Shown piece after piece: positions 3,001-41,008 of a DNA stretch of 48,441 nt (position 1 is its first letter; the number at the start of each line of letters is the position of its first letter). The stretch covers positions 1 through 48,441 of the forward strand of contig JAUCBJ010007341.1 in assembly GCA_032718475.1 (NCBI GenBank), given 5' to 3'. The notes under the pieces are model-generated. The model was not told the DNA's origin and did not search any database. It saw nothing but the letters and a program-made list of their open reading frames with translations. Both the position numbers and the translations under genes were made by a program. This DNA is from Nemertoderma westbladi. Lineage: Eukaryota > Animalia > Xenacoelomorpha.

Positions 3001-3017
3001 ATGTATCTGTGGTAGAT

Positions 3018-4702
3018 TGTAGTCCTACACTGTAACACTGTTAGAGTGTAACGGAGTGTAGTCCTACACTGTAACACTGTAAGAGTGTAACGGAGTGTAG
3101 TCCTACACTGTAACACTGTTAGAGTGTAACGGAGTGTAGTCCTACACTGTAACACTGTAAGAGTGTAACGGAGTGTAGTCCTACACTGTAACACTGTAAG
3201 AGTGTAACGGAGTGTAGTCCTACACTGTAACACTGTAAGAGTGTAACAGAGTGTAGTCCTACACTGTAACACTGTAAGAGTGTAACGGAGTGTAGTCCTA
3301 CACTGTAACACTGTAAGAGTGTAACGGAGTGTAGTCCTACACTGTAACACTGTAAGAGTGTAACGGAGTGTAGTCCTACACTGTAAGAGTGTAACGGAGT
3401 GTAGTCCTACACTGTAACACTGTAAGAGTGTAACGGAGTGTAGTCCTACACTGTAACACTGTAAGGGTGTAACGGAGTGTAGTCCTACACTGTAACACTG
3501 TAAGAGTGTAACGGAGTGTAGTCCTACACTGTAACACTGTAAGAGTGTAACGGAGTGTAGTCCTACACTGTAACACTGTAAGAGTGTAACGGAGTGTAGT
3601 CCTACACTGTAACACTGTAAGAGTGTAACGGAGTGTAGTCCTACACTGTAACACTGTAAGAGTGTAACGGAGTGTAGTCCTACACTGTAACACTGTAAGG
3701 GTGTAACGGAGTGTAGTCCTACACTGTAACACTGTAAGAGTGTAACGGAGTGTAGTCCTACACTGTAACACTGTAAGAGTGTAACGGAGTGTAGTCCTAC
3801 ACTGTAACACTGTTAGAGTGTAACGGAGTGTAGTCCTACACTGTAACACTGTTAGAGTGTAACGGAGTGTAGTCCTACACTGTAACACTGTAACAGTGTA
3901 ACGAAGTGTAGTCCTACACTGTAAGAGTGTAACGGAGTGTAGTCCTACACTGTAACACTGTTAGAGTGTAACGGAGTGTAGTCCTACACTGTAACACTGT
4001 AAGAGTGCAACGGAGTGTAGTCCTACACTGTAACACTGTTAGAGTGTAAGGAGTGTAGTCCTACACTGTAACACTGTAAGAGTGTAACGGAGTGTAGTCC
4101 TACACTGTAACACTGTTAGAGTGTAACGGAGTGTAGTCCTACACTGTAACACTGTAAGAGTGTAACGGAGTGTAGTCCTACACTGTAACACTGTAAGAGT
4201 GTAACGGAGTGTAGTCCTACACTGTAACACTGTAAGAGTGTAACGGAGTGTAGTCCTACACTGTAACACTGTAAGAGTGTAACGGAGTGTAGTCCTACAC
4301 TGTAACACTGTAAGGGTGTAACGGAGTGTAGTCCTACACTGTAACACTGTAAGAGTGTAACGGAGTGTAGTCCTACACTGTAACACTGTTAGAGTGTAAC
4401 GGAGTGTAGTCCTACACTGTAACACTGTAAGAGTGTAACGGAGTGTAGTCCTACACTGTAACACTGTAAGAGTGTAACGGAGTGTAGTCCTACACTGTAA
4501 CACTGTAAGAGTGTAACGGAGTGTAGTCCTACACTGTAACACTGTAAGAGTGTAACGGAGTGTAGTCCTACACTGTAACACTGTAAGGGTGTAACGGAGT
4601 GTACGTAGTCCTACACTGTAACACTGTAAGAGTGTAACAGAGTGTAGTCCTACACTGTAACACTGTAAGGGTGTAACGGAGTGTAGTCCTACACTGTAAC
4701 AC
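3018..4702. repeat. 39-bp minisatellite, about 43 copies
   Basis: Unit GTAGTCCTACACTGTAACACTGTAAGAGTGTAACGGAGT, head-to-tail without spacers. Confidence 0.97.
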
Positions 4703-7804: not shown

Positions 7805-8607
7805 GTGAGTTCAACGGACGTTAACTGTTACGATTGGTACTTTTATTACTAGCCAATATAATCTCGATGCAAAAATCTTAACATCGTCTAAGAACTCCCG
7901 GGCTTCCTACTAAGGAAAAATTACAATAGCTAAGGTCCGTTAATGAACAGGGTATAGCAACCAGCCATTCCTCGAACTGCGTATACTAGATGTTCATACA
8001 TTGGAATGGAACGCTTGTCCAAGGCTCTTGTTCACGATTTGTAGATCTCGGATTGAACCAAACAGTTGTCACGGACTGCACAAATAACAGCATTTTGTCG
8101 ATGCAGAAACTACTAAATAAACTATGTAAGTCAAATCTGTGTAAATCCACCACAGAAAAGATTCCTAAACTGACGAGGATCTCGCTAGCACTACATTAGC
8201 TACTGAATCCAAACAGCCGTCTAACTGATTTAGGTAAGGCAACTTTAAGACTGTTAAATATGCGTTGACTGCAATAGACATCGGCCCAAAGTGCATTACA
8301 ATTAATTTTACAACAGTAGCTATTGAAGTACTGTATGTTGTTTTTATTGTAATGTTCTCAAACAAAAATATGGCACAAAATGGTGGTTAATTAATTATTA
8401 GTATAATTAAGTATTAGTGTTAATTAATAGTAAGTAATAGTAGTCATTCAGTAATCAAAACTGAAAAAATTGGACTGTATTTGAACGAGAACTACTTGGT
8501 GTTCAGGTGGCCATAAATAAGTGTAAAGTCTATCTGCAGCCTGCAGGCGGAATGTCTTCACTTCTACTGTATATAAAAACGGACCACAAACCGCTTCTGT
8601 GTAGTAT

Positions 8608-9068
8608 TGTATCGAGTTTGATAAAACTCATTTTATTAATGAAAGTAAAATCCAAGAAAAGTCATACTTGTCAACCATTCAGTCTATAATCAGTTATATT
8701 TAATTGTTACATCTGTACATTCAGACATTTGACCATGAATCTACCGTTTAATGATGCGATGCTGATGCTAATGTTCACAAGTATTGACACATTTACATAT
8801 TAACTATAAACCGGTAACTATTGCAGTTTGCAAAAATATATAGGCCTGTAGGAATTATTTCCCGCTAGCGGTAACATTATATTGCTGCACAGTACAGCAG
8901 TTTGTAGGCTACGGTAGTGCAGTAAGTAGGCCTAAAACCAATAACAGTTAATAACCCTACAACATCAGATACAAGATCATTATACTGCATAGCTAATAAT
9001 AATAATCGGGTTTTTTAATAGTCCGCCCAGATGAAGTTTTAATCGGTCCACTATCAGACTCTGCTACA
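8608..9068 (-). repeat. BEL/Pao 3' LTR
   Basis: Direct repeat of 15834-16294; AATAAA on the minus strand near 8632-8637. Confidence 0.95.
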
Positions 9069-12000
9069 TCCTCCCGGCTCGAAACTATATCAGGAGTTTC
9101 ATCAATCTTTTTCTTCCTATAATTAATCCGATCACCCAAATCATCCGAATCCTTGGGAGAATCTTGTAAGCGCGTTTCATAATATCTCTCAAATAGATGG
9201 AGACGCTGAACTGGGCGCGAAAATTTGCCCTTTTTAGTTTCAACAGTCACTGTGCGAATTATACCATCTTTACTGGGATGAGTTTCTGTCACACGACCCA
9301 TAGGCCAGGAATTACGTCGAGTTCTATCTTCTGAAATAAGTACAATGTCATTGATCTTTATTGGTTCCTTCTCAAGTTGCCACTTTTGTCTTGGTTGCAA
9401 CTGGTGGAGATACTCTGTCTGCCAACGTCGCCAAAAGTTATCTAATAATCCCTGTAAATACACATATCTCTTTGTCAATGAAACTTCTTTACCACCAAGA
9501 TCATGCAAAGGACGCAATGGTCTTCCAAGTGCTAAATGAGCAGGTGTAATAGGTAGTATGTCCTTCGTATCTGGACTATGATAGGTCAATGGCCGTGAGT
9601 TTATCATCGCTTCTACATCAGTGAGAACAGTGTACATCTCAGTATAAGTCAATAATGACTTTGACAATATCTTCCGTAGGGGTTCCTTGAGACTACGATT
9701 AATTCTTTCCCAGTAACCTCCTCGGAAAGGACTTCGTTCCACAATAAAATTCCATGATATCTTACGCTCATTCATAAATGATGCAATAGCTTCTTTGTCT
9801 AAATGTTTCCAGATATTGTCTGAAAAATTTAGTTTGAAAACTTTGGAGGCTTTCTTAAACGTTTTCTGGTTATCAGAAGTCACTGTTTTACAAAGACCTC
9901 TACGATTTACCATTCTACGAAAGCATTGTAGAAATTCAGAAGTCTCCATATTTAAAGCTAATTCAAAGTGACACATACGGCTAGCTGCACAAGTGAAAAC
10001 ACAAATGTAAGCTTTATGTGTAGAAGATCCTTCTTTGATAAGTAGTGCACCAGTAAAATCAATTCCAATATTCCAAAATGCTGGTGATATCTGTAAGCGT
10101 TCAGGTGGCAAGTTGCCCATAATTTGTTCCATTGGGACAGTCTTATGATGGTTACAAACATTGCAGAGATGAACTGCTTTTCTTATCTCATGACGTGAAT
10201 TAATAATCCAATACTTTTGTTTGAGGAGTGATAATAAAACCTCCTGTGGTGCATGTTGATTTGAAATATGCACCTGTAGTATAAGTTTTTGAACCAAACC
10301 TTCACCTTTAGGAAGAAGAATTTGATGTTTAGCAGACAAGGGTAGATCGGAAAATTCAAGTCGCCCACCAACTACCAACAATTGTCGATCAATATCATAT
10401 TGAGGATTCAAAGGCAACAAATGATGTTTATTAGGCAATGGTTTATTCTGCGATAATAAATTATAAGCCTCCATGAAATAGTGCTTCTGCAGAATTTTCC
10501 ACCAATGCATTTCTGTAGCTTCCATCTCCTCCAGAGTAACCAAATAAGGATGTAATGATGTCAGTGTTGTCGGCTGTTTATCCAGAGCCACTTCATCACT
10601 GTTCTCAACCCCCTGGGACAATTTCTTCCTAGCTCTAGCTAGCCAACGAAAGCATCTCACAGTAAATCGAATAAGATTACTAAACCTCCCATAATATTCA
10701 GTAATATAGTTACTAAATTGAGTAACATTTGCTGATTTTAGGTTAGATACAAGGCATATAGATTCTGATGCCTCATCATCCTGAACCAAATGTTCAGAGC
10801 TATTTATGGTAGGTGTTGACAAACCTTGAATAATTCTTTTCACATATTTATGTTGTTTAATAGGTCTCTTCTCTGGTAGTTCAATTTCAACATTCAATGA
10901 AGATTTCGGCCAATCATCATTATTCTTAATAAGCCAGTCTGGACCTTGCCAATAAAATGCACTGTCTTTCATCTCCATTAGACTGGTACCTCTAGAGAGG
11001 AGATCTGCTGGGTTTTGATCTCCGGGCACAAATCGCCATACTTCGATAGGACTTAGGTCATGTATCTCTTGTACACGATTTTGAACGAATGTGTTCCATG
11101 TGTAGCTCTCTTTCGCTATCCAACCCAATGCAATTTCAGAATCTGACCATAAATAATAGGAGTTTATATCGACACGTTGATGAAGAGCATCTAAAATATA
11201 CTTAACAAGACGCGCTGCCAGGACAGCACCAAGAAGTTCCAATCGTGCTAACCTGAGTCGTTTAAGTGGAGCTACTCTTGATCTCGCCATGACGAAATGA
11301 GAAGAGGTATTGCTATCACAGAATTCAGTTCGCATATATACTACTGCTCCATACGCAACTTCTGAAGCATCAGAAAAAGCGTGTAATTGTACTATAGTTG
11401 GGTTTCCTTTATAGAAGAGTCTAGGAACCTTAATCGTTTGAAGTAGATAAAGTTCACGTTCCCATTCTCGAAATGAGTTAATTATGCCATCTGTTAATTC
11501 GTCATCCCAACCACATTTGTTAAGCCACATATTTTGCAAAATAATCTTGCCTCGAATTACAAAAGGGCTAACAAATCCAAAAACATCATAGATCTGAGAT
11601 ATCTTACTAAGCATCAATCTTTTTGTTCGAGAATAGGTGCTCAAATCAGTTAATCTGTCAGTGACAACCAAACTGAAAGTATCATCAGTCTCATAATTCC
11701 AACCAAGACCCAGCGCCTTAGTATTTCCTAAATCAGATTGATCAGTAAAGCTCACAAAGTTTCCTACTAAACGATCTTTCTCTGGTATAAGTGATAATAG
11801 TTTAGCCGAATTCGAACCAAATTTTGTTAGCTCATAACCAGCCATTTTACACATATCTACTAACTCTATATATAATTGCTCAGCTTGAATCTCATTGTCG
11901 GCTCCACCTAACAGATCATCAACATAGAAACTGTCAGATGCTTCTTTTGCAGCCAATGGAAACTTAGCTATCATGTCTGGTCTTTCACAATGATGAATTC

Positions 12001-13480
12001 GTATTCTTTGTGCTAAATAAGGACAAGGACTAACTCCAAACATCAACACAGTCATACAATATTTTTCAATGGGTTCATCTTTATTATTTCGCCACAAATA
12101 CTGCTGATAACAATGCTGATCTGATACCAGTTTAGTTTGTAAAAACATCTTGCGTATATCTGCTACAAGAGCTATAGGTTTTGTCCTGAAACGAAGTAAA
12201 ATTTGAGCAATATCAGGTTGCAGAATAGGCCCAGGTAGTAGACAATCATTCAGTGAGTTCCCATTCTTGTCTTTGGTGCTTGCATTATAAACTATTCTAA
12301 CTTTGGTAGAAGAGCTGCCTGGTTTATAAACTGGATGATGTGGAAGAAAGAACTGTTCACCATTCATGAATTGTTCTTCTTCTTCAGCTGAAACTTTATG
12401 GGCAAATCCCTTTTCAACATAATCATTAATAGTCTCCCTATAAATCTGTTTCTCAACTTGAGATTTCTCCAGTCTTTTCTCAAGTGATTCTAATAGTTTC
12501 TTAGCTCGATGGTAATTAGATACAAGAGTTGGTGCTTGAGGCTTGAAAGGTAGAGCAACAGAATAATGGCAGTTCTGGTCATCATAATTAAGTGAGATTT
12601 TGAACTGCTCCTCTGCCTCTCTTTCATCTTTGGTAAGCACCTTGGAAGAATTAACAATGCCAATTGTTTCTATATCCCAAAACCGTTCCATTGAATTCAA
12701 CAGTTTTTCATTAATCCTGGTTTGGGTAATATAACATGACTTTGGTCTTGGTTTAATTCGCTTATTGCTAGTATCTGGGCCACAAACAACATATCCAAAG
12801 ACTGTGGCCATAGCGCAAGGAAGTTTATTGTTAGAAGGGTGACGAATAATATCGCCAGTAATAAATTGAAAGAAATAATCCATTCCAATTAAAATGTCCA
12901 GTTGTTCATAGCCATGTGGAAATTCGTCAGCAAAAAGTAGACCTTGCAGATGTGTACACTTTTCTAAATTAATAGCCAAGGGTTGAATTTCCTTACAGAA
13001 ATCGGGAAATGACGCTGCTGTCATTTTAAAGTATAAACTTGAATCGGTTTTGGAACATAATCCAAACTCAACTATATCTGCATATTCAACAATAGTTGAT
13101 TTACCAAAACCTGTTACTTCCATTTCTTCAGTTGACACAATGTTCAGATCTAAAGATTGGGCAATACATTTTCGAATAAAAGAAACTTGGGAAAAACTAT
13201 CAAATCCCACACGCACTTCACAGGGAGTTCCATTATCTAATGGCATAAGCATTACCTTAGCTGTTGGAGAGATAAATTGAGTTTTAAGGTCAGCCTTAAC
13301 TCCAAGTGATATAGCTTGTGTTGTTACTTTATGACTACCAGAATTCATTATAGCCTTCTTATCAACATGCAGTAAGGGATGGTGCTTGTCTATGCAGCCT
13401 TCAACACCACATTCATCTGGTCTACGACAGTCCTTCTTGATATGGTTCAGTACATAAGAAACATGCTCCCTTATCAGCAA
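8993..13480 (-). CDS. BEL/Pao Pol (protease, RT, RNase H/peptidase A17, integrase)
   Basis: LPHHPV..K.R.V, SLND.L..GP.L, FYVDD, LHAFSDAS..AYG, RLEL, NPAD..SRG, SDN, GG.WER, RPVQRL. Confidence 0.95.
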   Translation of the reverse strand: MLIREHVSYVLNHIKKDCRRPDECGVEGCIDKHHPLLHVDKKAIMNSGSHKVTTQAISLGVKADLKTQFISPTAKVMLMPLDNGTPCEVRVGFDSFSQVSFIRKCIAQSLDLNIVSTEEMEVTGFGKSTIVEYADIVEFGLCSKTDSSLYFKMTAASFPDFCKEIQPLAINLEKCTHLQGLLFADEFPHGYEQLDILIGMDYFFQFITGDIIRHPSNNKLPCAMATVFGYVVCGPDTSNKRIKPRPKSCYITQTRINEKLLNSMERFWDIETIGIVNSSKVLTKDEREAEEQFKISLNYDDQNCHYSVALPFKPQAPTLVSNYHRAKKLLESLEKRLEKSQVEKQIYRETINDYVEKGFAHKVSAEEEEQFMNGEQFFLPHHPVYKPGSSSTKVRIVYNASTKDKNGNSLNDCLLPGPILQPDIAQILLRFRTKPIALVADIRKMFLQTKLVSDQHCYQQYLWRNNKDEPIEKYCMTVLMFGVSPCPYLAQRIRIHHCERPDMIAKFPLAAKEASDSFYVDDLLGGADNEIQAEQLYIELVDMCKMAGYELTKFGSNSAKLLSLIPEKDRLVGNFVSFTDQSDLGNTKALGLGWNYETDDTFSLVVTDRLTDLSTYSRTKRLMLSKISQIYDVFGFVSPFVIRGKIILQNMWLNKCGWDDELTDGIINSFREWERELYLLQTIKVPRLFYKGNPTIVQLHAFSDASEVAYGAVVYMRTEFCDSNTSSHFVMARSRVAPLKRLRLARLELLGAVLAARLVKYILDALHQRVDINSYYLWSDSEIALGWIAKESYTWNTFVQNRVQEIHDLSPIEVWRFVPGDQNPADLLSRGTSLMEMKDSAFYWQGPDWLIKNNDDWPKSSLNVEIELPEKRPIKQHKYVKRIIQGLSTPTINSSEHLVQDDEASESICLVSNLKSANVTQFSNYITEYYGRFSNLIRFTVRCFRWLARARKKLSQGVENSDEVALDKQPTTLTSLHPYLVTLEEMEATEMHWWKILQKHYFMEAYNLLSQNKPLPNKHHLLPLNPQYDIDRQLLVVGGRLEFSDLPLSAKHQILLPKGEGLVQKLILQVHISNQHAPQEVLLSLLKQKYWIINSRHEIRKAVHLCNVCNHHKTVPMEQIMGNLPPERLQISPAFWNIGIDFTGALLIKEGSSTHKAYICVFTCAASRMCHFELALNMETSEFLQCFRRMVNRRGLCKTVTSDNQKTFKKASKVFKLNFSDNIWKHLDKEAIASFMNERKISWNFIVERSPFRGGYWERINRSLKEPLRKILSKSLLTYTEMYTVLTDVEAMINSRPLTYHSPDTKDILPITPAHLALGRPLRPLHDLGGKEVSLTKRYVYLQGLLDNFWRRWQTEYLHQLQPRQKWQLEKEPIKINDIVLISEDRTRRNSWPMGRVTETHPSKDGIIRTVTVETKKGKFSRPVQRLHLFERYYETRLQDSPKDSDDLGDRINYRKKKIDETPDIVSSREDVAESDSGPIKTSSGRTIKKPDYYY

Positions 13481-15629
13481 CTATTTGCCTTTTTTCAGCT
13501 GTGGTAGCTTGAATAAATTTATAACAAGATGATAAAAACCGACATTTTTTCTCACAAAGTGGACACTTGTATTCAACTTTAGCAGTACCTCTATCAGTAT
13601 CCACTTTTGACTTGTCCCAGTTCTTAGAGTATGAACCAGATCCCTTAAATCCTTTTGGCTTAGTCCCACTATCAGACCCTACTGCTAATGTTTGAGAAGA
13701 AAACTTTCTATCCTTTTCTTTCAAAGGTTTTTTATCATCTTTATTATTATTATGAGTGTCTTTCTTATTGCATTCATCTCTCGTAACATCTTTCCGTGCT
13801 ACCAGAGTTTGCAACCAAGAAATAAATTCCTCATATGTGGGCATTGCACCATCTATATGCTTGTCATCAACTTCCTTTTCCCATTCTTCCCGAATTTTTT
13901 CAGGGAATAATGTTTCCATGGAAGATAGCAGAAAGTTGTCAACAGTTAAATGGTATTTAGATAGATCCAACATGACATTTTGTATTGAATCACATAACTT
14001 TCGCAATGCAGAAATATTATCTTCATCAGTAACTTTTGAAAAGTTCTGAAGTTTTTTGATTAAATGTTTTACAACAATTCTTTCCTTGCCATAAAACCTT
14101 TTAACACTTTCAAGAGCCAGTTTATAATTGTTCGCAGATATTTCCATATCAATAATACAGGTAGCAGCTTTTCCTACTAATGCCTTCTTTAAGTATGTCA
14201 TTTTGTAGAAATTACTTACCTTGTCATTATTGCCTACTATAGCCTCGAATTTTGAAAACCAGCATGGAAATTCTGAATAGGAACCATCGAATTTTGGTAT
14301 GTCTACACCACTAGGTAGACCACCTCGCATTCGTTCCTCTTTATCGGCATCACGCTTCACTTGGGTAAATGTTTTATAGCGACCTATTGCTTGACGAAGA
14401 CTATTTATGTCCTCCAGCAGTTCTGAATGACGTTGATCAATTTTTGTTATTGCAGATTTACACATTTTATGTGTAATAAATCCTTCACACTGTTCGAGAC
14501 GTTTTTCTATAGAACGTAGATCGAAATCTAGTGCATTTGGATCCTTTTCATCTTCAGAGAGTTCATTTACTCTCCTAACAGCTAACCAACAGGGTTTAGC
14601 TAGACGAATATATTCATCAATTTGATTTGATTCCTCAATATCTTGTTTCCTCTGAAACATCACTGAGTTTATTCTGTGCTTCAATTGTCTAAACCGGTGT
14701 TTAAACTGCTGAAAATCTTCAAATAAATCATTTTTAAGTTCCTCATTTTCCAATGAAAACAGACGCTTGTTTACAAATTTATCAGCATCCTGTAGTTCCT
14801 CAGTAGCATCATCAATACGACGCTGCCAAACATGCACATCCATTTCATAAGGATCAATATCAAAATCCATTTCTGCATATAATTCTTGAAGATGGGACAT
14901 TATTGACCTAAATTTATTCTCAATTGATTCAGCTGAATTGGATACAGAGGATAAACCACCAGAATCATTTAAAGGAGATCCCCCTTGCCCATTAATTGGA
15001 GAGGATGTACGTTGGGGTTGGGGTTTTCTGTTAATTGTTTGAAACAACAACAGTAAATCTCTGCGATCCTGTTCCCTCCAATCTCGTTCTCGACGTTCTC
15101 TTTGTTCATCCAGCTGCATTTGCATATTGAAGAATTGGGTCATCATAGCTGATTCCAGCGGCCCGGTACCGGTAGCAGGTCCGGTACCGGTAGCAGGTCC
15201 GGTACCGGTAGCAGGTCCGGTACCGGTAGCAGGTCCGGTACCGGTGGCAGGTCCGGTACCGGTGGCAATCGCACTGAATTCAGTTGTAGGCCTACTTGTT
15301 GCAATAGATGGTGGATGCGCTAAGGGATTAATAATATTATATGGACTACGTTGGATTGGTGAGAAAACCTGGCTCAAATTGTAACCAGGTCGCTCAGTGG
15401 ATTGCGAATCTGCAAATCCAAAATTAATGTTGTCAATATCGTCATTACTTTGGTCTGAGGCGAGGAAGACTCTCAAGCGATTCCGTTTTTCTCCAGTAGT
15501 TCCGGAACACAAGAGACCTCTCTCTTCCAAACAACGATCCAACTCCAATGGCGTCAGATTGCCAATGTCTTCCAGAGCGGGTAAATCAGCCCGTCTGTCT
15601 GACTTCAGATAATATGGTGACTGCGCCAT
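13422..15629 (-). CDS. BEL/Pao Gag (SAP-like N-terminus, GPATGT repeats, DUF1759-like region, Zn knuckles)
   Basis: IPKFDG..F..W...F, K..YLK..L.GKA, NY..AL..L; CxxC knuckles at the end; frameshifted relative to pol. Confidence 0.9.
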   Translation of the reverse strand: MAQSPYYLKSDRRADLPALEDIGNLTPLELDRCLEERGLLCSGTTGEKRNRLRVFLASDQSNDDIDNINFGFADSQSTERPGYNLSQVFSPIQRSPYNIINPLAHPPSIATSRPTTEFSAIATGTGPATGTGPATGTGPATGTGPATGTGPATGTGPLESAMMTQFFNMQMQLDEQRERRERDWREQDRRDLLLLFQTINRKPQPQRTSSPINGQGGSPLNDSGGLSSVSNSAESIENKFRSIMSHLQELYAEMDFDIDPYEMDVHVWQRRIDDATEELQDADKFVNKRLFSLENEELKNDLFEDFQQFKHRFRQLKHRINSVMFQRKQDIEESNQIDEYIRLAKPCWLAVRRVNELSEDEKDPNALDFDLRSIEKRLEQCEGFITHKMCKSAITKIDQRHSELLEDINSLRQAIGRYKTFTQVKRDADKEERMRGGLPSGVDIPKFDGSYSEFPCWFSKFEAIVGNNDKVSNFYKMTYLKKALVGKAATCIIDMEISANNYKLALESVKRFYGKERIVVKHLIKKLQNFSKVTDEDNISALRKLCDSIQNVMLDLSKYHLTVDNFLLSSMETLFPEKIREEWEKEVDDKHIDGAMPTYEEFISWLQTLVARKDVTRDECNKKDTHNNNKDDKKPLKEKDRKFSSQTLAVGSDSGTKPKGFKGSGSYSKNWDKSKVDTDRGTAKVEYKCPLCEKKCRFLSSCYKFIQATTAEKRQIVADKGACFLCTEPYQEGLS

Positions 15630-15833
15630 ATTATTACCAGTTTAGTACCGGTACCGTACCGTTAAGAAGTAGGCCTAACGGAAACGGCCCACAATAAAAA
15701 AATAAACTGCAGGTCCAGATACTTCAATTAAAAAGAAACCGGTATCCGTATCATTAGGAAGTAGGCTTGACGGAAGCGGATTGCAGCAAAATAAACTGAC
15801 TAGTTAATATCAATAACATTAGTTACTTGTGAA

Positions 15834-16294
15834 TGTATCGAGTTTGATAAAACTCATTTTATTAATGAAAGTAAAATCCAAGAAAAGTCATACTTGTCAA
15901 CCATTCAGTCTATAATCAGTTATATTTAATTGTTACATCTGTACATTCAGACATTTGACCATGAATCTACCGTTTAATGATGCGATGCTGATGCTAATGT
16001 TCACAAGTATTGACACATTTACATATTAACTATAAACCGGTAACTATTGCAGTTTGCAAAAATATATAGGCCTGTAGGAATTATTTCCCGCTAGCGGTAA
16101 CATTATATTGCTGCACAGTACAGCAGTTTGTAGGCTACGGTAGTGCAGTAAGTAGGCCTAAAACCAATAACAGTTAATAACCCTACAACATCAGATACAA
16201 GATCATTATACTGCATAGCTAATAATAATAATCGGGTTTTTTAATAGTCCGCCCAGATGAAGTTTTAATCGGTCCACTATCAGACTCTGCTACA
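15834..16294 (-). repeat. BEL/Pao 5' LTR
   Basis: Direct repeat of 8608-9068. Confidence 0.95.
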
Positions 16295-16360
16295 AGTATA
16301 GTGCATGGCTCTCCCCCGTGAAGTCTGCATGTCTCTTTCATATATTATATATATCAGTCA

Positions 16361-16387
16361 TGGCGCAGTTATGATTTTCGAACCTAC
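16361..16387 (+). promoter_or_regulatory. Gypsy primer-binding site, tRNA-Ser-like
   Basis: TGGCGCAGT..TTCGAACCTAC directly after the LTR; resembles the complement of an invertebrate tRNA-Ser 3' end as I recall it. Confidence 0.7.
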
Positions 16388-16551
16388 AACTGTATTGCTG
16401 TATTGCTGTACCAGCTTACTGCTACCACCTACCACGCTACCAGTATACTCTGCTAGACCGCCAGGCCCTCGGGCCCAGGCCAGCCATACCCGCACATTAG
16501 GTTCTGTCTGCCCGTCTGCTGTTAATAAAGTAATAGGCCTACATTAATACT

Positions 16552-19500
16552 ATGGCGCACAACTCAACCGACCCCCGCTCCTTCGTACTCCGCAGCGCAG
16601 CCCCTCCGTTCGACATCGACTGCGAACGTTCGACGTGGGACCTGTGGATCGAGGAGTGGGAAGCGTTCCTGGTGACGTCGGGCCTCGAGAACCTGCGGAC
16701 CATCGACCCCACGGACCCTCCGGACCCGGCCGTCTCGGCCGACCTCCTCCGGGCCACCAACAGACAGCGTCGAGCCGCCCTCACATCCGCGTTCTCCCGC
16801 AGTACGAACGCCGTGGTAAGGGGACTTGGGCTCTCCACTGTCGACAACTCGGATGCGTCCCTCGTCATCGCGACACTCGGTACCCACGTCCACGGAGGGA
16901 CTAACAAACGGGTCCACCGACAGGAACTCGCCCGGCGTTCCCGCCTCCCAGAGGAAACACCGGAGACCTTCCTGGTCCACCTCCGGGACATCGCCACCAA
17001 GTGTGAGTTCGAGGCGCTCCCCACCGCGGCGGCCCACGCCAACGATCGGCTCCTCGATCAATTCATCGCGGGCTTCGGCGACAAAGAGGTGACCGAGCAG
17101 CTCCTCCGCCTGCCTCCAGACAGCTACATCACGGATGCCCTCCGCCTCGCGCAGACTGTCTGGACTGCCCGCAAGGACGCCGCCTCCATGTCGTGGAGCG
17201 GGGCCCCCGCAACCGCTCCCACGGCGCCCTCGGCTGCCAGAGCGACGGCGCAACGCAGCCGCCGGCCCAGGCCCCGCCGCGATCAACCACCCACCCGCTG
17301 CCCGCAGTGCGGGTTCCCCCCACACAACGCGGGAGCCCGTTGCCCCAGCGCCGATGCCCGCTGTCGCCACTGCAACACAGTCGGGCACTACAATCGGATG
17401 TGCCCCCGCCGCCCCCAGACCAACGCAGCCGACGGGCCCGCCACCGATTACGACGACGATCGGTCGACCAACGCCGCCGAGATCTGGTCGATCCTCGCCG
17501 GTCCCGAACTTTACGACGCCCCCACCGTCTCCTCCATTGAACAGTTGGAGTCCCTCGAGACGGTGACACTGGGATTCCAGGTCACTAAGAACCCCAGTTT
17601 CGGAATCACCGAACTCCAGTTCCTCCCAGATTCCGGTGCTAACATTACGGCGATTCCCTTCCGGATCTACTCAGCCTTCGGGGGGAAAGTCGAGATCCTC
17701 CGGAACTCCAACCCGCCGCCCCAACCACCTAAACTCGCCAACGGTAGTCGAGCGGGTTGGGTTTTTAAGGGAGTATTCGGCGCCACCATCCAGTGCCATG
17801 CATTGCACACTGCCTGCACCACGGATGTCTGGGTCCTGGACGGCCTCCACCAACCACTGCTGTCCAGGATGCAGGAAGACCTGCTTCACCCTCGGGATCC
17901 TGTGGAGCCCCATCCTCCGGGGTGGGCGGGGGCCACCCGACGCCCTCACTAGGCAATGTGCGAACCAGCTACTGGCCGCGCCACTGCCCACGCCACCGAC
18001 CACGCCACCAGCACAACCACCGCCAACCCCACCAACACCGACACCATCGCCGACACTGCCACCCAACGCGACCCAGACCTGGGAAACCCTGGTTACCCGG
18101 TACCCCCGCCCCCTCTCTGGGAACTGTAGGGTTATGGCCGGGGGGGATATAACCATAAAACTGCTCCCGGACGCCAAACCATCGTTCCGGTACTCCAACC
18201 GCCCCATACCGGCCAACCTGGAGGAGGCATTCGACAGGGAGCTCAGCGGCCAGGTTGCCATGGGGATCCTCGAGCCCGCGGACGATGCCAACAGTCCCAG
18301 CGCGTGGCTCAGCCCCATGGTCGTTACTAGGAAGAAGAGCGACCCCAACTCCGTCCGGATTACTGTCGACCTCCGGGAGTTGAACCGCCACACCGTCCGA
18401 CCCGCCTACTTTTCCCCGGACCCGTTCCAGGTCGTCTCCCGCGTCCCCACATCGGCCCGCTACTTCTCCGTCCTCGATGGACTCAAGGGGTTCCACCAGG
18501 TCGGCCTCGATCGGGACAGCCGGGAGCTCACCACGTTCGCCACTCCGCGGGGACGGTTCCGGTACCGCCGAATGCCCATGGGGTGGCACGGCAGTTCGGA
18601 CGTCTTCAACGCCCGGATGGCCAAGGCCCTCCAGGGCGTCCCCAACATCGGCCGGATCGTCGAGGATATCCTCATCTATACCGACACCATAGAGGAGCAT
18701 CCGGAGGCAGTGGCGAGAGTTCTCGCCGCCTGCGACACCGCCGACATCTCCATCAACCCGAGGAAGGTTCAGTTCTGCCTTCCGGAGGTCAAGTTCGGCG
18801 GCTACATCGTCTCCCACGGCCGATTCCGGATCGACCCGGAACTCACGGACGGCCTACGGAACTTCCCGACCCCAACCTGCCGGAAGGAACTCCGATCGTT
18901 CCTCGGCCTCGCCCAGCAGCTGGGAAACTCCACAGCCGAGATAACCCAACTAATCGAACCCCTCCGGAGCCTGAACTCTAACTATAACAGCTGGTTGTGG
19001 CTGCCCCAACACAACCAGGCGTTCGAGGCGACTCGGTCCGCCCTGTCCAGCCCCCACTACCTGTCTGGGTTCCACCCCGACCGACGGACGGAACTCCTCA
19101 CCGACGCCTCCCGGCTCCACGGACTCGGTTTCCTTCTCCGACAGCGCGACCCCGACTCCAACCGTTGGCTCACCGTCCAGTGCGGCTCCCGTACCCTCGC
19201 CAAACACGAGGCCAACTGGTCCGGTATGGCCGAACTGGAGGCCCTCGGCGCTGCGTGGGCGGCCCACAAGTGCCGCTATTTCCTCGACGGACTGCGGCAC
19301 TTCGAACTGGTGACCGACAGCAGTCCGTTGATTCCTGTACTGAACGATCGCAGCCTCGACCAGGTCACCAACGACCGCCTGCTGAAACTGAAGACCGCCT
19401 TGGCGCGGTTTAATTTCACCGCTCGGCACCAACGCGGCACCAAGCACCTCGTGGCTGACGCGTTCTCCCGCGCCCCCCGCCACGCACCGGAGCCCTCCGA

Positions 19501-20985
19501 CCTACTACTCACCCCGGAGGACGACGCCGACCGGGAGTTCATCGTCAACGCGGCTGCGGGAGAAATACAACCCGTCGAATCCCGGGACGCCCGTCTCGAA
19601 CAGGTCCGCCAGGTCGGCCAGCTAGACCCCGTCTACCGCGCCCTGCTCACCACCATCGACGAGGGCTGGCCAACCTCCAAACACCAGATTACCGACGACC
19701 AACTCAGACCTTACTTCGCTCACCGCGCTGACCTGATGGCCCACAATGGCCTCATCCTCCGCGGGCCCCAACTATACATCCCCGTGGAACTGCGACACGA
19801 GACCCTGCTGCAACTCCACGCAGTCCACCAGGGCCTTAACAAGACGCGAGAACGCGCTAACAGGTCTGTCTGGTGGCCCTCCATCGCCCACGACATTACA
19901 CAGGAGGTGGGGCGGTGCCAACCGTGTCAGGCAGTCCTCCCCTCCCACGCACCCGAGCCCCTCCAGCGCAACCCGGAAGCGACCCGTCCGTTCCAACGGA
20001 CCCACATCGACCTCTTCCAGGTCGACGCCAAAAACTACATGGCCGCCACCGACGAGTTCACTGGGTGGCCGACATTATATCGGCTAAACTCCGACACCAC
20101 CTCGGTCGCCATTATCGACTGCCTCCGTAAGCTGTTCCTCGCCACCGCGGTGCCTACGGTGCTCCACCCAGATGGAGGCCCCAACTTGTGTCAGACGCCA
20201 TCAAGAACTTCCTCCATCGATGGGGCGTCACCCTCGAGCCTTCCAGCCCCCACCTCCCACGCACAAACGGACTGGCGGAGGCCGCGGTGAAAGCCCTTAA
20301 GAAGATCGTCCGGGGAGCCAACCACGACTCAGACGACATCGCCCAGGGGATACTCGCGTTCCGGAATACCCCCCGCTATGGAGGCCGGTCCCCCGCGGAA
20401 CTCCTCTACGGCAGGAACGTCCGTGAGGCCCTCCCCGTGCATTTCACTGCACTCGACCCCAAATGGCGCCAAACCTTCGCCGAGCTCGACGCCCTTGCCG
20501 ACTCCAACCGCGCGCTACTCCGGGCGAACTATGACGGCCACACCCGACCACTCCGGGCCCTCCCAGTAGGCCACCCTGTCCTTATCCAGGACCCCCGCGA
20601 TAAACGCTGGACGGGCCAGGGGACAGTAGTCGAGACCCTCCAGAACCACGACTACCTGGTACGTCAAGCCAGCGGCCGCGTTGTGCGACGCAACCGGGTT
20701 TTTCTGCGGACCCGGTCGCCCACGCTACCACCCTCGGGCCCACCACTACCGCCCACCCCACCACAACCACTCCAAGAAGTCACACCCAACCCACCACCAC
20801 TGGCGCCACCCATACCCACCTGGGCCGACGTCGCCGCGCCGCCTCAGCCACCGACCACCACCAGCCCCCCACGGGCACCCCAAATACTGACCCAAGCCCC
20901 ACCACCCCCCGCCCCCACCCATACCCGATCCGGTCGAACCATTCGCCCCCCACCACGATACGCCAACAGTGACTACAGTAAATAA
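16552..20985 (+). pseudogene. Gypsy gag-pol (two CCHC knuckles, PR, RT, RNase H, integrase) with two frameshifts
   Basis: CPQCGFPPH..CRHCNTVGHYNRMC; FLPDSGA; LDGLKGFHQ, RMPMG, IVEDILI; TDAS; HQG..C..C and D-D-E; frameshifts at about 17869 and 20187. Confidence 0.92.
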
Positions 20986-21239
20986 CCCTCATAGCCTGTT
21001 CATTTTAACTTTTAGCGGTATATCGTTATTTACCAGTATGTTTATTGCTAATCACCCACCCCCTCCTAAGAAGGGGATATGTGTAGTATAGTGCATGGCT
21101 CTCCCCCGTGAAGTCTGCATGTCTCTTTCATATATTATATATATCAGTCAATTATATATATCAGTCAGCTTCTGTCTATATTAAATACCAAAACACCTCG
21201 ATATGATAGAAAATCGTCGTTTTCATCGACTCAGCAAAA

Positions 21240-29679: not shown

Positions 29680-30405
29680 CTCTTTGAGCTGTTTACTGAT
29701 TTGGAATTCGGATATCTTGACTTTATTTTTGGCCCGTCTGTTTCTTTCTCTCTCGGTTGCTTCCTCGGCCTCTTTAGCCAACAGCGCCCGTTCCAGACCC
29801 AGTAACTCCTCCTCCAGTACCCATTGTCTCGTCTTTATCTCCCGCCATCGCTCCAACCTTCGATGTAACTCATCCGCATCCTCTAACTGCGCTTCCCGAA
29901 GACAGCTTTGTTTTTCCCGCAGCTTAGCAACCGCCACTGACTCCCCGAACAGACACCTCGCCTGCTCCAGCAGTTCCAACCGATCCCGATCCCATTGATT
30001 CTCAAGACTTTTTATTTTTAACCTAAGAAATCTATCCCCCTCGCAGTGGGCGAGTTGTTCCTCGAGGAGTCCTCGGGACCAGTCCGGGAACTGTCGGTGC
30101 AATCTGTCCACCAGCAGACGGTGTCGGTTCACCGTCTCCCCAACCGGGTACTGCTCCAACACCATCCCCACTAACATTCTCGTCTCTGACTCCATTATGG
30201 ATGACAGCTCGCCACGTTCTCTCTCCAGGTCTCTCAATCTCGTCTCGTAACTTTCGTCCACCGCCAGGAGTTCGAGTATCATGTAAATACGCAGCGATGT
30301 GTCCGGACATTCCCACTCAAATAGTTTGCGCGGAAACTTACGCCCCCTGGTGGAACTTGATGGCACTGCGGATGTTTCATCGGTATTCATATCGGAACTA
30401 CTCAT
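29680..30405 (-). CDS. CCDC148: CCDC148-like exon (242 codons)
   Basis: tacag|atg..gag|gtttgt, phase 0-0; ECPD..L, coiled-coil sequence. Confidence 0.85.
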
Positions 30406-30431
30406 CTGTAATTAACCAGAATAGATTCAAA

Positions 30432-33400
30432 CTATTTATTAACGCTGTTACTATTAATTAACGCTGTTACTATTTATTAACGCTGTTACTATTTATTAAC
30501 GCTGTTACTATTTATTAACGCTGTTACTATTTATTAACGCTGTTACTATTTATTAACGCTGTTACTATTTATTAACGCTGTTACTATTTATTAACGCTGT
30601 TACTATTTATTAACGCTGTTACTATTTATTAACGCTGTTACTATTTATTAACGCTGTTACTATTTATTAACGCTATTACTATTTATTAACGCTGTTACTA
30701 TTTATTAACGCTGTTACTATTTATTAACGCTGTTACTATTTATTAACGCTGTTACTATTTATTAACACTGTTACTATTTATTAACGCTGTACTATTTATT
30801 AACACTGTTACTATTTATTAACGCTGTTACTATTTATTAACGCTGTTACTATTTATTAACGCTGTTACTATTTATTAACGCTGTTACTATTTATTAACGC
30901 TGTTACTATTTAATAACGCTGTTACTATTTATTAACACTGTTACTATTTATTAACACTGTTACTATTTATTAACGCTGTTACTATTTATTAACGCTGTTA
31001 CTATTTATTAACGCTGTTACTATTTATTAACGCTGTTACTATTTATTAACACTGTTACTATTTATTAACACTGTTACTATTTATTAACGCTGTTACTATT
31101 TATTAACGCTGTTACTATTTATTAACGCTGTTACTATTTATTAACGCTGTTACTATTTATTAACGCTGTTACTATTTATTAACGCTGTTACTATTTATTA
31201 ACACTGTTACTATTTATTAACGCTGTTACTATTTATTAACGCTGTTACTATTTATTAACGCTGTTACTATTTATTAACGCTGTTACTATTTATTAACGCT
31301 GTTACTATTTATTAACGCTGTTACTATTTATTAACGCTGTTACTATTTATTAACGCTGTTACTATTTATTAACACTGTTACTATTTATTATCGCTGTTAC
31401 TATTTATTAACGCTGTTACTATTTATTAACGCTGTTACTATTTATTAACGCTGTTACTATTTATTAACGCTGTTACTATTTATTAACACTGTTACTATTT
31501 ATTAACGCTGTTACTATTTATTAACGCTGTTACTATTTATTAACGCTGTTACTATTTATTAACGCTGTTACTATTTATTAACGCTGTTACTATTTATTAA
31601 CACTGTTACTATTTATTAACGCTGTTACTATTTATTAACGCTGTTACTATTTATTAACACTGTTACTATTTATTAACGCTGTTACTATTTATTAACGCTG
31701 TTACTATTTATTAACGCTGTTACTATTTATTAACGCTGTTACTATTTATTAACGCTGTTACTATTTATTAACGCTGTTACTATTTATTAACGCTGTTACT
31801 ATTTATTAACGCTGTTACTATTTATTAACACTGTTACTATTTATTAACGCTGTTACTATTTATTAACGCTGTTACTATTTATTAACGCTGTTACTATTTA
31901 TTAACGCTGTTACTATTTATTAACGCTGTTACTATTTATTAACGCTGTTACTATTTATTAACGCTGTTACTATTTATTAACGCTGTTACTATTTATTAAC
32001 ACTGTTACTATTTATTATCGCTGTTACTATTTATTAACGCTGTTACTATTTATTAACGCTGTTACTATTTATTAACGCTGTTACTATTTATTAACGCTGT
32101 TACTATTTATTAACACTGTTACTATTTATTATCGCTGTTACTATTTATTAACGCTGTTACTATTTATTAACGCTGTTACTATTTATTAACGCTGTTACTA
32201 TTTATTAACGCTGTTACTATTTATTAACACTGTTACTATTTATTAACGCTGTTACTATTTATTAACGCTGTTACTATTTATTAACACTGTTACTATTTAT
32301 TAACGCTGTTACTATTTATTAACGCTGTTACTATTTATTAACACTGTTACTATTTATTAACGCTGTTACTATTTATTAACGCTGTTACTATTTATTAACG
32401 CTGTTACTATTTATTAACGCTGTTACTATTTATTAACGCTGTTACTATTTATTAACGCTGTTACTATTTATTAACACTGTTACTATTTATTAACGCTGTT
32501 ACTATTTATTAACGCTGTTACTATTTATTAACACTGTTACTATTTATTAACGCTGTTACTATTTATTAACGCTGTTACTATTTATTAACGTTGTTACTAT
32601 TTATTAACGCTGTTACTATTTATTAACGATGTTACTATTTATTAACACTGTTACTATTTATTAACGCTGTTACTATTTATTAACGCTGTTACTATTTATT
32701 AACGCTGTTACTATTTATTAACGCTGTTACTATTTATTAACGCTGTTACTATTTATTAACACTGTTACTATTTATTAACGCTGTACTATTTATTAACGCT
32801 GTTACTATTTATTAACGCTGTTACTATTTATTAACGCTGTTACTATTTATTAACGCTGTTACTATTTATTAACGCTGTTACTATTTATTAACGCTGTTAC
32901 TATTTATTAACGCTGTTACTATTTATTAACGCTGTTACTATTTATTAACGCTGTTACTATTTATTAACGCTGTTACTATTTATTAACACTGTTACTATTT
33001 ATTAACGCTGTTACTATTTATTAACGCTGTTACTATTTATTAACACTGTTACTATTTATTATCGCTGTTACTATTTATTAACGCTGTTACTATTTATTAA
33101 CGCTGTTACTATTTATTAAGGCTGTTACTATTTATTAACGCTGTTACTATTTATTAACACTGTTACTATTTATTAACGCTGTTACTATTTATTAACGCTG
33201 TTACTATTTATTAACGCTGTTACTATTTATTAACGCTGTTACTATTTATTAACGCTGTTACTATTTATTAACGCTGTTACTATTTATTATCGCTGTTACT
33301 ATTTATTAACGCTGTTACTATTTATTAACGCTGTTACTATTTATTAAGGCTGTTACTATTTATTAACGCTGTTACTATTTATTAACGCTGTTACTATTTA

Positions 33401-34082
33401 TTAACGCTGTTACTATTTATTAACGCTGTTACTATTTATTAACGCTGTTACTATTTATTAACGCTGTTACTATTTATTAACGCTGTTACTATTTATTAAC
33501 GCTGTTACTATTTATTAACGCTGTTACTATTTATTAACACTGTTACTATTTATTAACGCTGTTACTATTTATTAACGCTGTTACTATTTATTAACGCTGT
33601 TACTATTTATTAACGCTGTTACTATTTATTAACGCTGTTACTATTTATTAACGCTGTTACTATTTATTAACGCTGTTACTATTTATTAACGCTGTTACTA
33701 TTTATTAACACTGTTACTATTTATTAACGCTGTTACTATTTATTAACGCTGTTACTATTTATTATCGCTGTTACTATTTATTAACGCTGTTACTATTTAT
33801 TAACGCTGTTACTATTTATTAAGGCTGTTACTATTTATTAACGCTGTTACTATTTATTAACACTGTTACTATTTATTAACACTGTTACTATTTATTATCG
33901 CTGTTACTATTTATTAACGCTGTTACTATTTATTAACGCTGTTACTATTTATTAAGGCTGTTACTATTTATTAACGCTGTTACTATTTATTAACACTGTT
34001 ACTATTTATTAACGCTGTTACTATTTATTAACGCTGTTACTATTTATTAACGCTGTTACTATTTATTAACGCTGTTACTATT
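30432..34082. repeat. 19-bp minisatellite, about 190 copies
   Basis: Unit CTATTTATTAACGCTGTTA with few variants. Confidence 0.98.
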
Positions 34083-35974: not shown

Positions 35975-38900
35975 AATGCGCAAATTGGCCCAGAAGACAT
36001 CAAGGGTTACACCTATAACACCAGTTCTAACAGAAATGGGTACTTACTTTTAGACCTAATGGAAGAATGTGTATTGATACCAACAAACAACACATTCGAA
36101 AAGAGTAAGGGGAAGCTATGGACCTTTCAATACCCTAATGGAACCAAAGCACAACTGGATTACATCCTTATAAACAAAAAGTGGAGAAACAGCATGATCA
36201 ACTGCGAGGTATACAGCTCGTTCAACCTAATTGGTTCGGACCACAGAATTGTGACTGCAGAGATAAGACTCAGTTTGAGAGCCAGCAAACCCAGGACAAG
36301 CAAGCAAATCAACTATGACTGGGAGAAACTCAGAACTGACAATGCTGTAAAGTAAAGGATGCTTACACAGTAGAAGGTCAAAACCGCTTTGAAGCACTTC
36401 AGTCAATGGATGAAGACCAATCCACCGATTCAATATACCAGAATATAATAACAGCCCACAAGGAATCAGCTAAGAGGCATATCCCCCAGAAACCCAAACG
36501 AAAACAGTATGTGCCATGGCAAAACTCTGAGGTTACTTGTAAGAGAGAAGATCTTAAGATAGCCTACAAAGTTAAAACCGAACAACCAACAACTGAAAAC
36601 ATTAACAAGGTTGAGAAAGCTAAGGACGATCTTAAATTGGCCTACAACATCAGCCAGGAAAAGTACATACAGGATAAAACTGAAGCAATTACAACTGCTC
36701 ACATACAGCAACAATCAAGACTTACCTGGCAAACTGTAAATGAGGTATCTGGTCGGAAAAGTTGTGCAAAGGGGCGCCTCAAAGCCGATAGTCCTGAAGA
36801 ACGTGTTGGGAAGTGGAAAAATCACTTCAGCAACTTGCTTGGGCAACCAAACATCGAGGTCAGCCCTACAAGGAAAATATATGACAAGACACTACCTATA
36901 GAAACAGGGGACTTCACACCTGCCGAACTCCAAAGAAGCATTAAAAGCATGTCTAATAATAAAGCGAGTGGATTAGATGAAATCCCAGCGGAGGTATGGA
37001 AAACCGGAGTGCTAAACAGACCATTATTGAATGTTTGCAACCGGATGTTAAAAGGGGAAAAGCCACCACCAATTTGGACTAAAGGTCAACTAAAGCCTCT
37101 CCCCAAGAAAGGAGACCTCGGCATACCAACAAACTATCGTGGGATCTGTCTGCTTGTGGTAGCTGCCAAAATATACAATAAAATGATTCTATATATGATT
37201 AGGCCTCACATAGAGAAACTACTGCGTAAGAGCCAAAACGGATTTCGACCAAGTAGATCAACAATAGCTCAGATACTTGCACTACGGAGACTGATTGAAG
37301 GAATTAAGTCAAAGAATCTCCCCGCAGTCATGACTTTTGTGGACTTCAAGAAGGCATTCGACTCCATCCATAGAGGTAAAATGCTTGAAATCCTAAGAGC
37401 TTATGGAATACCAGAAGTAATTGTTGCTGGCATTGGATTGCTATATTGTGACACAGAAGCGCAGGTACTCTCACCAGATGGTGAAACTGAGTTTTTCTCA
37501 ATCCTGGCTGGCGTACTGCAAGGTGACACATTAGCACCATTACTATTTGTAATTGTACTGGATTACGCAATGAGGACGGCCACAAAGGGTGAAGATCTGG
37601 GATTCACACTTCAAGAACGCAGAAGTAGTAGATATCCGGCAACTACAGTCACAGACACCGACTTTGCGGATGACATCGCCCTGCTCTCTAATACGCTAGC
37701 AGATGCACAGCTTCTACTAAATAAAGTGGAGAGGGCTGCTAAGGAGGTTGGATTGCATATAAATGCTACCAAGACCGAATTCATGACCTTTAATGTTGAT
37801 GGAAACTTGACAACCATTGATAATAATCAACTAAGGAAGGTCGATGACTTCCAGTACCTTGGATCATGGATAGAGAGTAGCAAAAAGGAAATAGAAGTTA
37901 GGAAAGCAACTACTACTAGGATCGGCATGCTGCATTGCAGCTGCATTTTTAAGAATGCTGTGCCGGCTTGTCAACAAAATTGCACCGCCACAACTCCCTA
38001 TCACCCATGACATTTGCTAGATCATCCGCATCTTTAAGGCCAGTGTCCTTTAAGATGCGTCTCAAGAAAGTCATGGGCTGTCCACCATGCTTATTCACTC
38101 CATGAGGCTGCCAAGGTACAAGATTATGCACTGGCTGGTCCTCACGGCGAAAGCAATGTCCTGCAAAGCAGAGGCGATTTTGTTCTAGTGTCAAGCTTGG
38201 GGGAACCAATGAGACACCTCCAATGTTATATAGTGTCTGGTTGGAGATGTGTGCATTGTACTTGACACAATGAACCCGGCGTAGCATTCTTGTGAATGTG
38301 CCATCCAGAGATTTGGTGTCCTCAGCAGTTAGAGCCCAGCATGGACTCCCATAGAGGAGTACTGGAACTACTGCTGCTCTAAATAATCGGACCTTAAGTT
38401 TCCGATTAATTCTCGGTGACTTCCAAATCCTGGAAAGCCTATTCAAGGCTGCCCGTGCCTTTCCCTTACGTATTCGAAGGTCCTCACCTGACTTCCGGAT
38501 CCATGATCCCAGGTAACAGAAGTCGTCCACATGCTCAAGCATACCATCCTTTGAGCTTATGCTCATCCGATCAGAGACTTGCTGAGGACTTTCAAAGTTA
38601 ACTGTCAGAATTTTGGTCTTTCTGGAGTTAATAAAAAGACCAACACTAGAAGCAGCATGTTCTAATGAGCTGAGGAGCCGTTGGGCTCCCTCTAATGATT
38701 CTGAGAGTACTCCTAAGTCATCAGCAAAGTCTAGATCAGTTAGGTACTTGGCAGGATTTCCTCGATTTCTGGAGCCAGTAGGTGGAGTTATCATCACCCC
38801 ATCATCATTATAATGATCTAAGGACATGCGTAGAACATAGTCAACCACAATAATGAACAAGAATGGTGCAAGTGTGTCTCCTTGGAGGACGCCCCATAAT

Positions 38901-40143: not shown

Positions 40144-40450
40144 TAAAAAAGGTGTCTCCGACGATAGTGAACCAGCTACACCGCAGTTATTCGTCAAACT
40201 TATAGCGTTCAAAAGTTGCATGGTTTTGGACCTGGTGGGGGCTATTTTATTTATTCTATTTAATAAATACAACATATTCTGGAACATATTGTTTATCCCA
40301 TAGATTTTGTCCTGAGAATTTCGACCAAACCAATATTTATCTCCACTAACGGGTATTATTAGTAGTCTTTCACGTAGTATAATTACAATCATAGTCTACC
40401 CGTTACGGAAGCTCAAGCCTATTTATTAGAGTTGAGGTACAGTATACAAT

Positions 40451-40675
40451 CCAAATCGGGGTAGCTCAGTTGGTTGAGCGCCGGGCCTGCAATCTATGGT
40501 TGTAGGTTGAGCCCCGCCAGGGTCCACTCAGCCTTTCATCCACTGGGGTCTATTAAATGAGTACCAGTTAAATTACTGGGAGCGAATCTTGGGATAGCGC
40601 CCACTCCTACCCTCGGGTAGCAGCTATCGAAAGAGGAGCCTTCGGGTCGCCTCCGGCTTCTGCCGACTGTTTGCT
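40451..40675 (+). mobile_element. tRNA-derived SINE with Deu/Nin-type central domain
   Basis: A-box TAGCTCAGTTGG, degenerate B-box, then CCACTCAGCCTTTCATCC..AAATGAGTACCAG; 13-bp TSD TACAGTATACAAT (40438-40450 / 40676-40688). Confidence 0.82.
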
Positions 40676-40697
40676 TACAGTATACAATTGGACTTAC

Positions 40698-40889
40698 CAG
40701 ACTGTTGCTTAACACATATAAATGATGAGTCAGTTGCCCTGGGTCTCCGGCTGACTTCCTAAACATCGCGTCCTTCCGGTAAAGTTTAACTTGCTCACAC
40801 AGCTCCAGACTAGGTAACACGATTTTACTGTTAGCATTGCGACGGTCGGCCTCGAGAAGATTGCGATAAGCTAAGAGTTCTCCAAACAC
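40698..40889 (-). CDS. CCDC148: CCDC148-like exon (64 codons)
   Basis: ctacag|gtg..ctg|gtaagt; VFGELLAYRNLLEADRR..; phase 0-0. Confidence 0.75.
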
Positions 40890-41008
40890 CTGTAGAAACA
40901 AGCGACTTGCGGTAAAATCACGCGAAAAAATTAATATATACAAAAAAAAGCAAAAACAGTCGGGTGACTACAAAACAAAGACCCAAAGACTCAAGACCTT
41001 TACAAAAC

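Follow-up and report, generated by a model that had tools for sequence, protein, structure and literature searches.

The window analysed here, a 48,441-nt stretch covering positions 1 to 48,441 of contig JAUCBJ010007341.1 of Nemertoderma westbladi (GCA_032718475.1), contains on its minus strand a BEL/Pao LTR retrotransposon that was inserted recently. The limits of its LTRs were set by two identical 461-bp copies, by a 5-bp target-site duplication and by an empty-site contig from another run (X3), which joins position 8602 to 16295. The LTRs begin with TGTA and end with TACA. The features of the element are as follows.

8608-16294, minus strand: BEL/Pao element, 7,687 bp
15834..16294, minus strand: 5' LTR, 461 bp, TG...CA, 100% identical to 8608-9068
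8608..9068, minus strand: 3' LTR, overlapped by the end of pol over its first 76 bp
16295..16299, minus strand: 5-bp target-site duplication on the 5' side, second copy at 8603-8607
13422..15641, minus strand: gag frame (DUF1759; first Met at 15629)
8993..13480, minus strand: pol frame with protease, RT (YVDD), RNase H (Peptidase_A17 model), integrase and DUF5641
9069..9080, minus strand: polypurine tract
15858..15863, minus strand: AATAAA, the likely poly(A) signal

The insertion site is the LTR of a GC-rich Gypsy element on the plus strand (16295-21150), which carries an ordinary TGG primer-binding site (PBS) at 16361. The two LTRs of this Gypsy element match over 66 bp only, and the DNA to the left of the BEL insertion shows no match to the Gypsy 3' LTR.

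Assignment to BEL/Pao is based on domain matches within the element (PF03564, PF05380, PF18701, PF17921 and PF00665) and on the PR-RT-RH-IN order of its Gag/Pol, as for BEL/Pao (Belpaoviridae). A profile search matched no chromodomain in its proteins. The LTRs lie inside the 0.2-1.2 kb size range of BEL/Pao, and a polypurine tract and target duplication are present. In the window copy gag and pol occupy different frames with a short overlap, vs a single frame of ~1,975 codons in related loci L002-L004 (a single ORF in L003 and L004), and contigs from other runs are unlike the window at this frame change. The family is young and mobile, given its identical LTRs and the different flanks and empty site seen in other runs. 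A short tandem repeat in gag (~15180-15270) encodes (ATGTGP)n, and contigs of other runs break and differ here. Run X4, a small-share run, covers part of gag only and has a loose end that resembles a cDNA template-switch adapter.

BEL/Pao elements are described by the ICTV as tRNA-primed, with an 18-nt PBS for host tRNA-Arg or tRNA-Gly (PMC8742986). The original prediction for this locus was that the element has no such site and that the sequence directly after its 5' LTR (..GATACA) is instead exactly complementary to a segment inside the LTR. Both sequence features are indeed present, and the complement is the single match in the LTR.

15824..15833, minus strand: 10-nt PBS position at offset 0 from the end of the LTR, without TGG; TTCACAAGTA
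16000..16009, minus strand: candidate self-primer TACTTGTGAA, the exact PBS complement, at LTR position 286-295

The PBS sequence TTCACAAGTA (15833-15824) abuts the LTR end, and its match stops exactly at the LTR boundary, the point from which DNA synthesis has to begin. Apart from the 3' LTR copy of TACTTGTGAA at 8783-8774, neither 10-mer recurs in the window. Shuffling the window LTR with dinucleotide content preserved produced the exact 10-mer in 37 of 20,000 cases, and a complement of at least 10 nt at offsets 0-4 in 123 of 20,000; among internal positions of the element, 9 of 6,735 have a complement of at least 10 nt in the LTR. Both 10-mers are unchanged in contigs of three DNA runs from two samples, and these same contigs show 4-5 other differences from the window in 1.1 kb. 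No tRNA was found in the window. An Rfam search of 15600-16400 with E values allowed up to 5, which has little power for a 10-nt site, gave no match.

Protein searches found unnamed proteins at 41-47% identity to the window element, vs 35-40% for named arthropod proteins; the top named homologues come from arthropods and molluscs and share its domains. An alignment of the unnamed protein set retrieved 59 metagenome loci, eight of which (L001-L008) fall into one clade with the window element. Clade support was SH-aLRT 100 in a quick tree of RT-RNase H (20 of 44 rows) and 95 in a quick tree of integrase (19 of 54 rows), the latter built without 10 near-duplicate loci and most arthropod proteins. 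L005 and L008 are present only in the integrase tree and L007 only in the RT tree, L015 was too short for either, and the trees hold no named BEL/Pao references (Pao, BEL, Tas, Suzu, Sinbad, Dan, Flow, Sparrow, Surcouf). Scans of viral contigs returned no relatives; of two genome contig scans, the first returned none and the second five distant loci, none with an LTR pair. Five BEL/Pao loci (L060-L064) lie in contigs of one bacterial MAG and likely reflect eukaryotic contamination of that assembly.

The junction between LTR and leader is readable in four of the eight clade loci (L003, L004, L005 and L008) and missing from L001, L002, L006 and L007; L051, L058 and several other loci have ambiguous LTR ends and were excluded from counts. 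The four readable relatives are collapsed contigs with one LTR copy each, whose LTR ends were set at the terminal inverted repeat, a choice made after inverted repeats had been seen. When all CA sites were scanned and ranked by terminal repeat, the chosen end came first in L004, L005 (tied) and L008, and stood in a four-way tie in L003.

The five readable families (the window family and these four) share 47-62% integrase identity and have five different PBS sequences, each of which is matched in its own LTR. The window's TTCACAAGTA has a 10-nt match at offset 0, equalled in 29 of 5,000 shuffles. The bases after the LTR in L003 (TTTGTATCCTT) match over 11 nt at offset 2 (5/5,000) and those in L004 (TTCAAAATTTA) over 11 nt at offset 3 (12/5,000), while L005 (ATTATTAAC; 114/5,000) and L008 (ATTTTATAC; 74/5,000) each have an unspliced match of 9 nt at offset 0. 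When PBS and LTR sequences were mismatched between loci, one of 90 pairs reached 9 nt and none of 90 reached 10. The covariation between the two 10-mers that had been proposed as a check is thus seen in all five readable families, and a TGG tRNA site, proposed as contrary evidence, was found in none of the four readable relatives. In an alignment of the L001-L003 LTRs, which otherwise align poorly, the primer word is the longest conserved run. The PBS word of L008 occurs twice in tandem (L008:2051-2074), with a third partial copy behind.

All five BEL relatives with a TGG PBS (L011, L017, L022, L025 and L036) have an own-LTR match of just 4-5 nt. One of these, L017, represents the sister lineage of the window clade and is of the tRNA-primed type; its PBS is the word assigned to tRNA-Met in the available text of PMC5445492. 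A link between the SAP domain of Gag and self-priming was considered and rejected: the tRNA-primed L017 has a SAP domain, and the window Gag has no SAP match at the cut-off.

In L005 and L008, removal of a predicted GTAAGT...YAG intron from the LTR (72 and 68 nt, respectively) extends the match from 9 to 11 nt. These introns are the best of 284 and 392 GT-AG pairs, respectively, and in each case the best pair has the consensus donor. A more distant element, L037 (29% identity), also lacks TGG and has an unspliced match of 6 nt, which becomes 13 nt once its single strict-consensus intron (404 nt) is removed; this one strict pair is the best of 1,819 GT-AG pairs, and the contig begins exactly at the predicted acceptor. 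The LTR of L037 lies near the contig end, with the leader at 1-150. A weak case is the distant L040 (1-600), likewise without TGG, which reaches 10-11 nt with a non-consensus donor after 474 pairs were tried. GT-AG removal gave no gain in the window (225 pairs), in L003 (205), in the 5' part of L004 (17) or in five controls. An intron-built primer in the window LTR was accordingly rejected, as none of the 225 GT-AG pairs improves the match and no GTRAG donor is present. Because intron removal lengthens the match in L005, L008 and L037, the match in these loci is to the predicted spliced RNA rather than to the DNA. It is likely, judging from these predicted introns, that host splicing of an LTR intron completes the primer in several relatives.

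An AU test rejected a single clade uniting the window group with L037, L040 and L044 (p 1.3e-6), in a 16-row quick tree with midpoint root in which L040 carried the self-priming label. At least two changes in priming mode are needed, either two gains or one gain and a return to tRNA. We regard as evenly balanced the broader proposal that BEL/Pao elements have gone from tRNA priming to self-priming or back on two or more occasions, that the spliceosome assembles the primer in many self-priming families, and that the window family is the intron-free form.

Since four related families keep an own-LTR match with different letters, the group is likely self-primed. Our preferred reading of these sequence comparisons is that the window clade has no tRNA primer site and probably starts its minus-strand DNA from a 10-11-nt primer taken from RNA of its own LTR. 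If Tf1 is a guide, the LTR-derived segment (16009-16000) would anneal to the PBS, cleavage by the element's RNase H at the segment's 3' end would leave a 3'-OH, as in Tf1, and RT would go on to copy U5-R. The RNase H region, the candidate for primer release, is present in the window pol frame. The RNA need not begin with the primer itself, which could be preceded by a 5' tail. The primer would be ready-made in the window family and completed by splicing of the LTR intron in several relatives. With the poly(A) signal at 15863, the R region available for strand transfer would be long.

Where the transcript begins is a separate matter. The original prediction placed the start at ~16009-16011, with the LTR 10-mer just after an initiator-like TCAA and about 25 nt downstream of TTTATA (16036-16031). 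Both motifs are present, and the window, L001, L002 and L003 each have TCA, CCA or GCA at the primer or immediately ahead of it, which fits a pyrimidine-purine start and favours that position. However, reading 16036 as a TATA box is weakened, for TTTATAG is not within one mismatch of TATAWAW and none of seven upstream contexts (the window and relatives) has TATAWAW at -20 to -35. The part of the prediction that is supported is the lack of a tRNA PBS together with a self-complementary primer site in a BEL/Pao element, given covariation in 5/5 families vs 0/5 TGG controls. A rival promoter position lies further upstream.

16062..16068, minus strand: TATAWAW, the only perfect match in the 70 nt upstream of the primer

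This perfect match, at 16068, is 59 nt upstream of the window 10-mer. In L005 and L008, moreover, a primer at the exact RNA 5' end as in Tf1 would need a first exon of 2-3 nt, because the intron splits the primer. Taken together, a start at ~16009-16011 under that TATA appears somewhat doubtful. The LTRs of the window, L001, L002 and L003 carry, ~20-60 nt upstream of the primer, a pyrimidine-rich AG|TT word resembling a 3' splice site, which in L005 lies at the primer itself; in the window this word (16036-16030) is the proposed TATA. No consensus donor for it was found in the window or L003.

Further complementarity between LTR and leader surrounds the primer pair in the window.

16023..16032, minus strand: second exact 10-nt complement, 5' arm, lying 13 nt upstream of the primer
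15801..15810, minus strand: 3' arm of this complement, 13 nt downstream of the PBS
15880..15910 (approximate), minus strand: LTR segment predicted to pair with the leader (~15817-15793), duplex -19.1 kcal/mol

The second 10-nt pair, taken in register, was equalled in 61 of 20,000 mononucleotide shuffles, and if formed in cis (16032-16023 with 15810-15801) it needs a longer 5' end. The duplex downstream of the PBS was equalled in 6 of 500 shuffles in the window and, by exact length, in 0 of 500 in L003; in L004, L005 and L008 it was no better than shuffles, and the tRNA control L022 also beat shuffles (3/500). Significance was thus reached in two of five clade families and one of five controls. 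The corresponding duplex upstream of the PBS was significant in 0/5 clade families, and lengthening the duplex past the primer's 5' side gave no significant energy in any of seven tests (window, 179 of 1,000 shuffles). An 8-nt complement of the primer, a potential decoy, lies in the LTR at 15897-15890. All four runs contain another record, of ~580-650 nt and perhaps from a sibling family, that shares a 42-bp LTR segment (15884-15925) with 3 differences; this segment overlaps the LTR stretch predicted to pair with the leader.

In the window, nested folding left the primer helix unformed (pair probability at most 0.02; 2.4-5.3 kcal/mol above the minimum), and in relatives it did so for some 5' ends only. 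The LTR-leader helix downstream of the PBS competes with the primer helix in the window. Together the two would be pseudoknotted, as read from the available description of the Tf1 'pretzel' (PMC10085805), and a pseudoknot, which is beyond a nested-structure program, may explain the absent primer helix.

Three other explanations of the match were weighed. The pairing could be real and selected yet structural, acting as a switch in packaging, dimer formation or translation, or in 5'-3' circularisation with the segment's 3' LTR copy, with priming from another source. Competing pairings at the window segment (the second 10-nt pair, the 8-nt decoy and a global fold without the primer helix) are consistent with such a role, as is the presence of the primer segment in both LTR copies of the RNA. 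However, a pure helix gives no reason for the register observed, in which the match lies 0-3 nt from the LTR end in all five families, reaches 10-11 nt after predicted splicing and is confined to elements lacking TGG; nor is another primer site to be seen. We consider a purely structural role unlikely.

The match might also be a neutral by-product, in which template switching copied a stretch of the LTR inverted beside the LTR in defective or otherwise mobilised elements. In its favour are the AT-rich LTR and leader with their several short inverted repeats, the tandem PBS word of L008 and the differing gag and pol frames of the window copy. Against it, the window family is young and mobile, L003 and L004 have single ORFs, and DNA copied in inverted form should correspond to the LTR before splicing and not to a predicted exon junction; we regard it as very unlikely. 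Priming by an internal tRNA fragment bound to the PBS, with the LTR match secondary, has a described counterpart in the half-molecule priming of some Copia lineages (PMC6317226, in the text available). Those lineages use one or two primers each, according to the same partial text, vs five unrelated PBS sequences here, each matched to its own LTR, and the Rfam search of 15600-16400, weak as it is for 10 nt, was likewise negative; we judge this explanation very improbable.

Self-priming by the element's own RNA, the reading we favour, is a known mechanism, shown for Tf1; the sequence feature in the window is real. In Tf1, according to the text available, the RNA's initial 11 bases anneal to the PBS and RNase H cleaves between base 11 and base 12 (PMC7175516, PMC4600332), within a three-duplex 'pretzel' (PMC10085805). 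As far as the accessible sources go, Tf1, Tf2 and Tj1 of fission yeasts and the Tf1/sushi group of Ty3/gypsy chromoviruses, including the plant Tcn1, share with the window element the lack of a tRNA PBS and a 10-11-nt LTR-derived complement; the ~11-nt Tf1-type complement with an abutting PBS corresponds to 10 nt at offset 0 in the window. Unlike Tf1/sushi, the window element has BEL/Pao proteins with no chromodomain match and so falls outside chromovirus ancestry. Its candidate primer need not be the RNA 5' end, as that of Tf1 is, and an intron splits the primer in some of its relatives. The 'pretzel', as described in the partial text, was not consistently found in the window clade.

In the available text of PMC6317226, self-priming is a described trait of Tf1/sushi elements and a predicted one of Tcn1 and of the TAR lineage of Copia. 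The TAR lineage of Ty1/copia (Houba, Osr-1) is, in that text, likewise a sequence-predicted case within a tRNA-using superfamily; these are plant Copia elements with another domain order, and their descriptions in the text available contain no intron-split primer. Fungal GalEa Copia elements form a clade that similarly lost the tRNA PBS while relatives keep it (PMC5445492, text available in part). In GalEa the place of the PBS is taken by a conserved palindromic hairpin, and that text reports no LTR complement, whereas the PBS of the window clade varies freely, always with an LTR complement. With canonical BEL/Pao (Belpaoviridae, Semotivirus) the window element shares DUF1759, Peptidase_A17, DUF5641, the protease-RT-RNase H-integrase order, LTR size, polypurine tract and 5-bp target duplication; it differs from them in that its clade (the window and 4/4 readable relatives) lacks a TGG and with it the PBS for a tRNA 3' end (PMC8742986).

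The suggestion that self-priming is undescribed for BEL/Pao agrees with the literature searched, which contained no such case; subscription journals, supplements, Repbase and GyDB lay outside its scope, and the ICTV text describes tRNA priming (PMC8742986). The main texts of four surveys on BEL/Pao or related elements (PMC3118150, PMC6238403, PMC8556966 and PMC554778) and of the Troyka paper mention neither PBS nor tRNA. If the preferred reading is true, self-priming occurs in all three LTR superfamilies and evolves repeatedly. Such elements would not rely on the host's tRNA supply and would presumably escape tRNA-fragment silencing, and annotation tools that depend on a PBS would miss them. 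Where an intron splits the primer, DNA synthesis would depend on splicing to begin, and reverse transcription would be gated in this way.

Elsewhere in the window, we observed a 603-bp inverted repeat (98%; 37909-45040) with arms 5.9 kb apart, beside which lie two convergent RT frames (36340-39646). Tandem arrays are found at 30278-34000, where a long array has a 19-bp unit, and at 3015-4702, with a period of ~78 bp (or 39).
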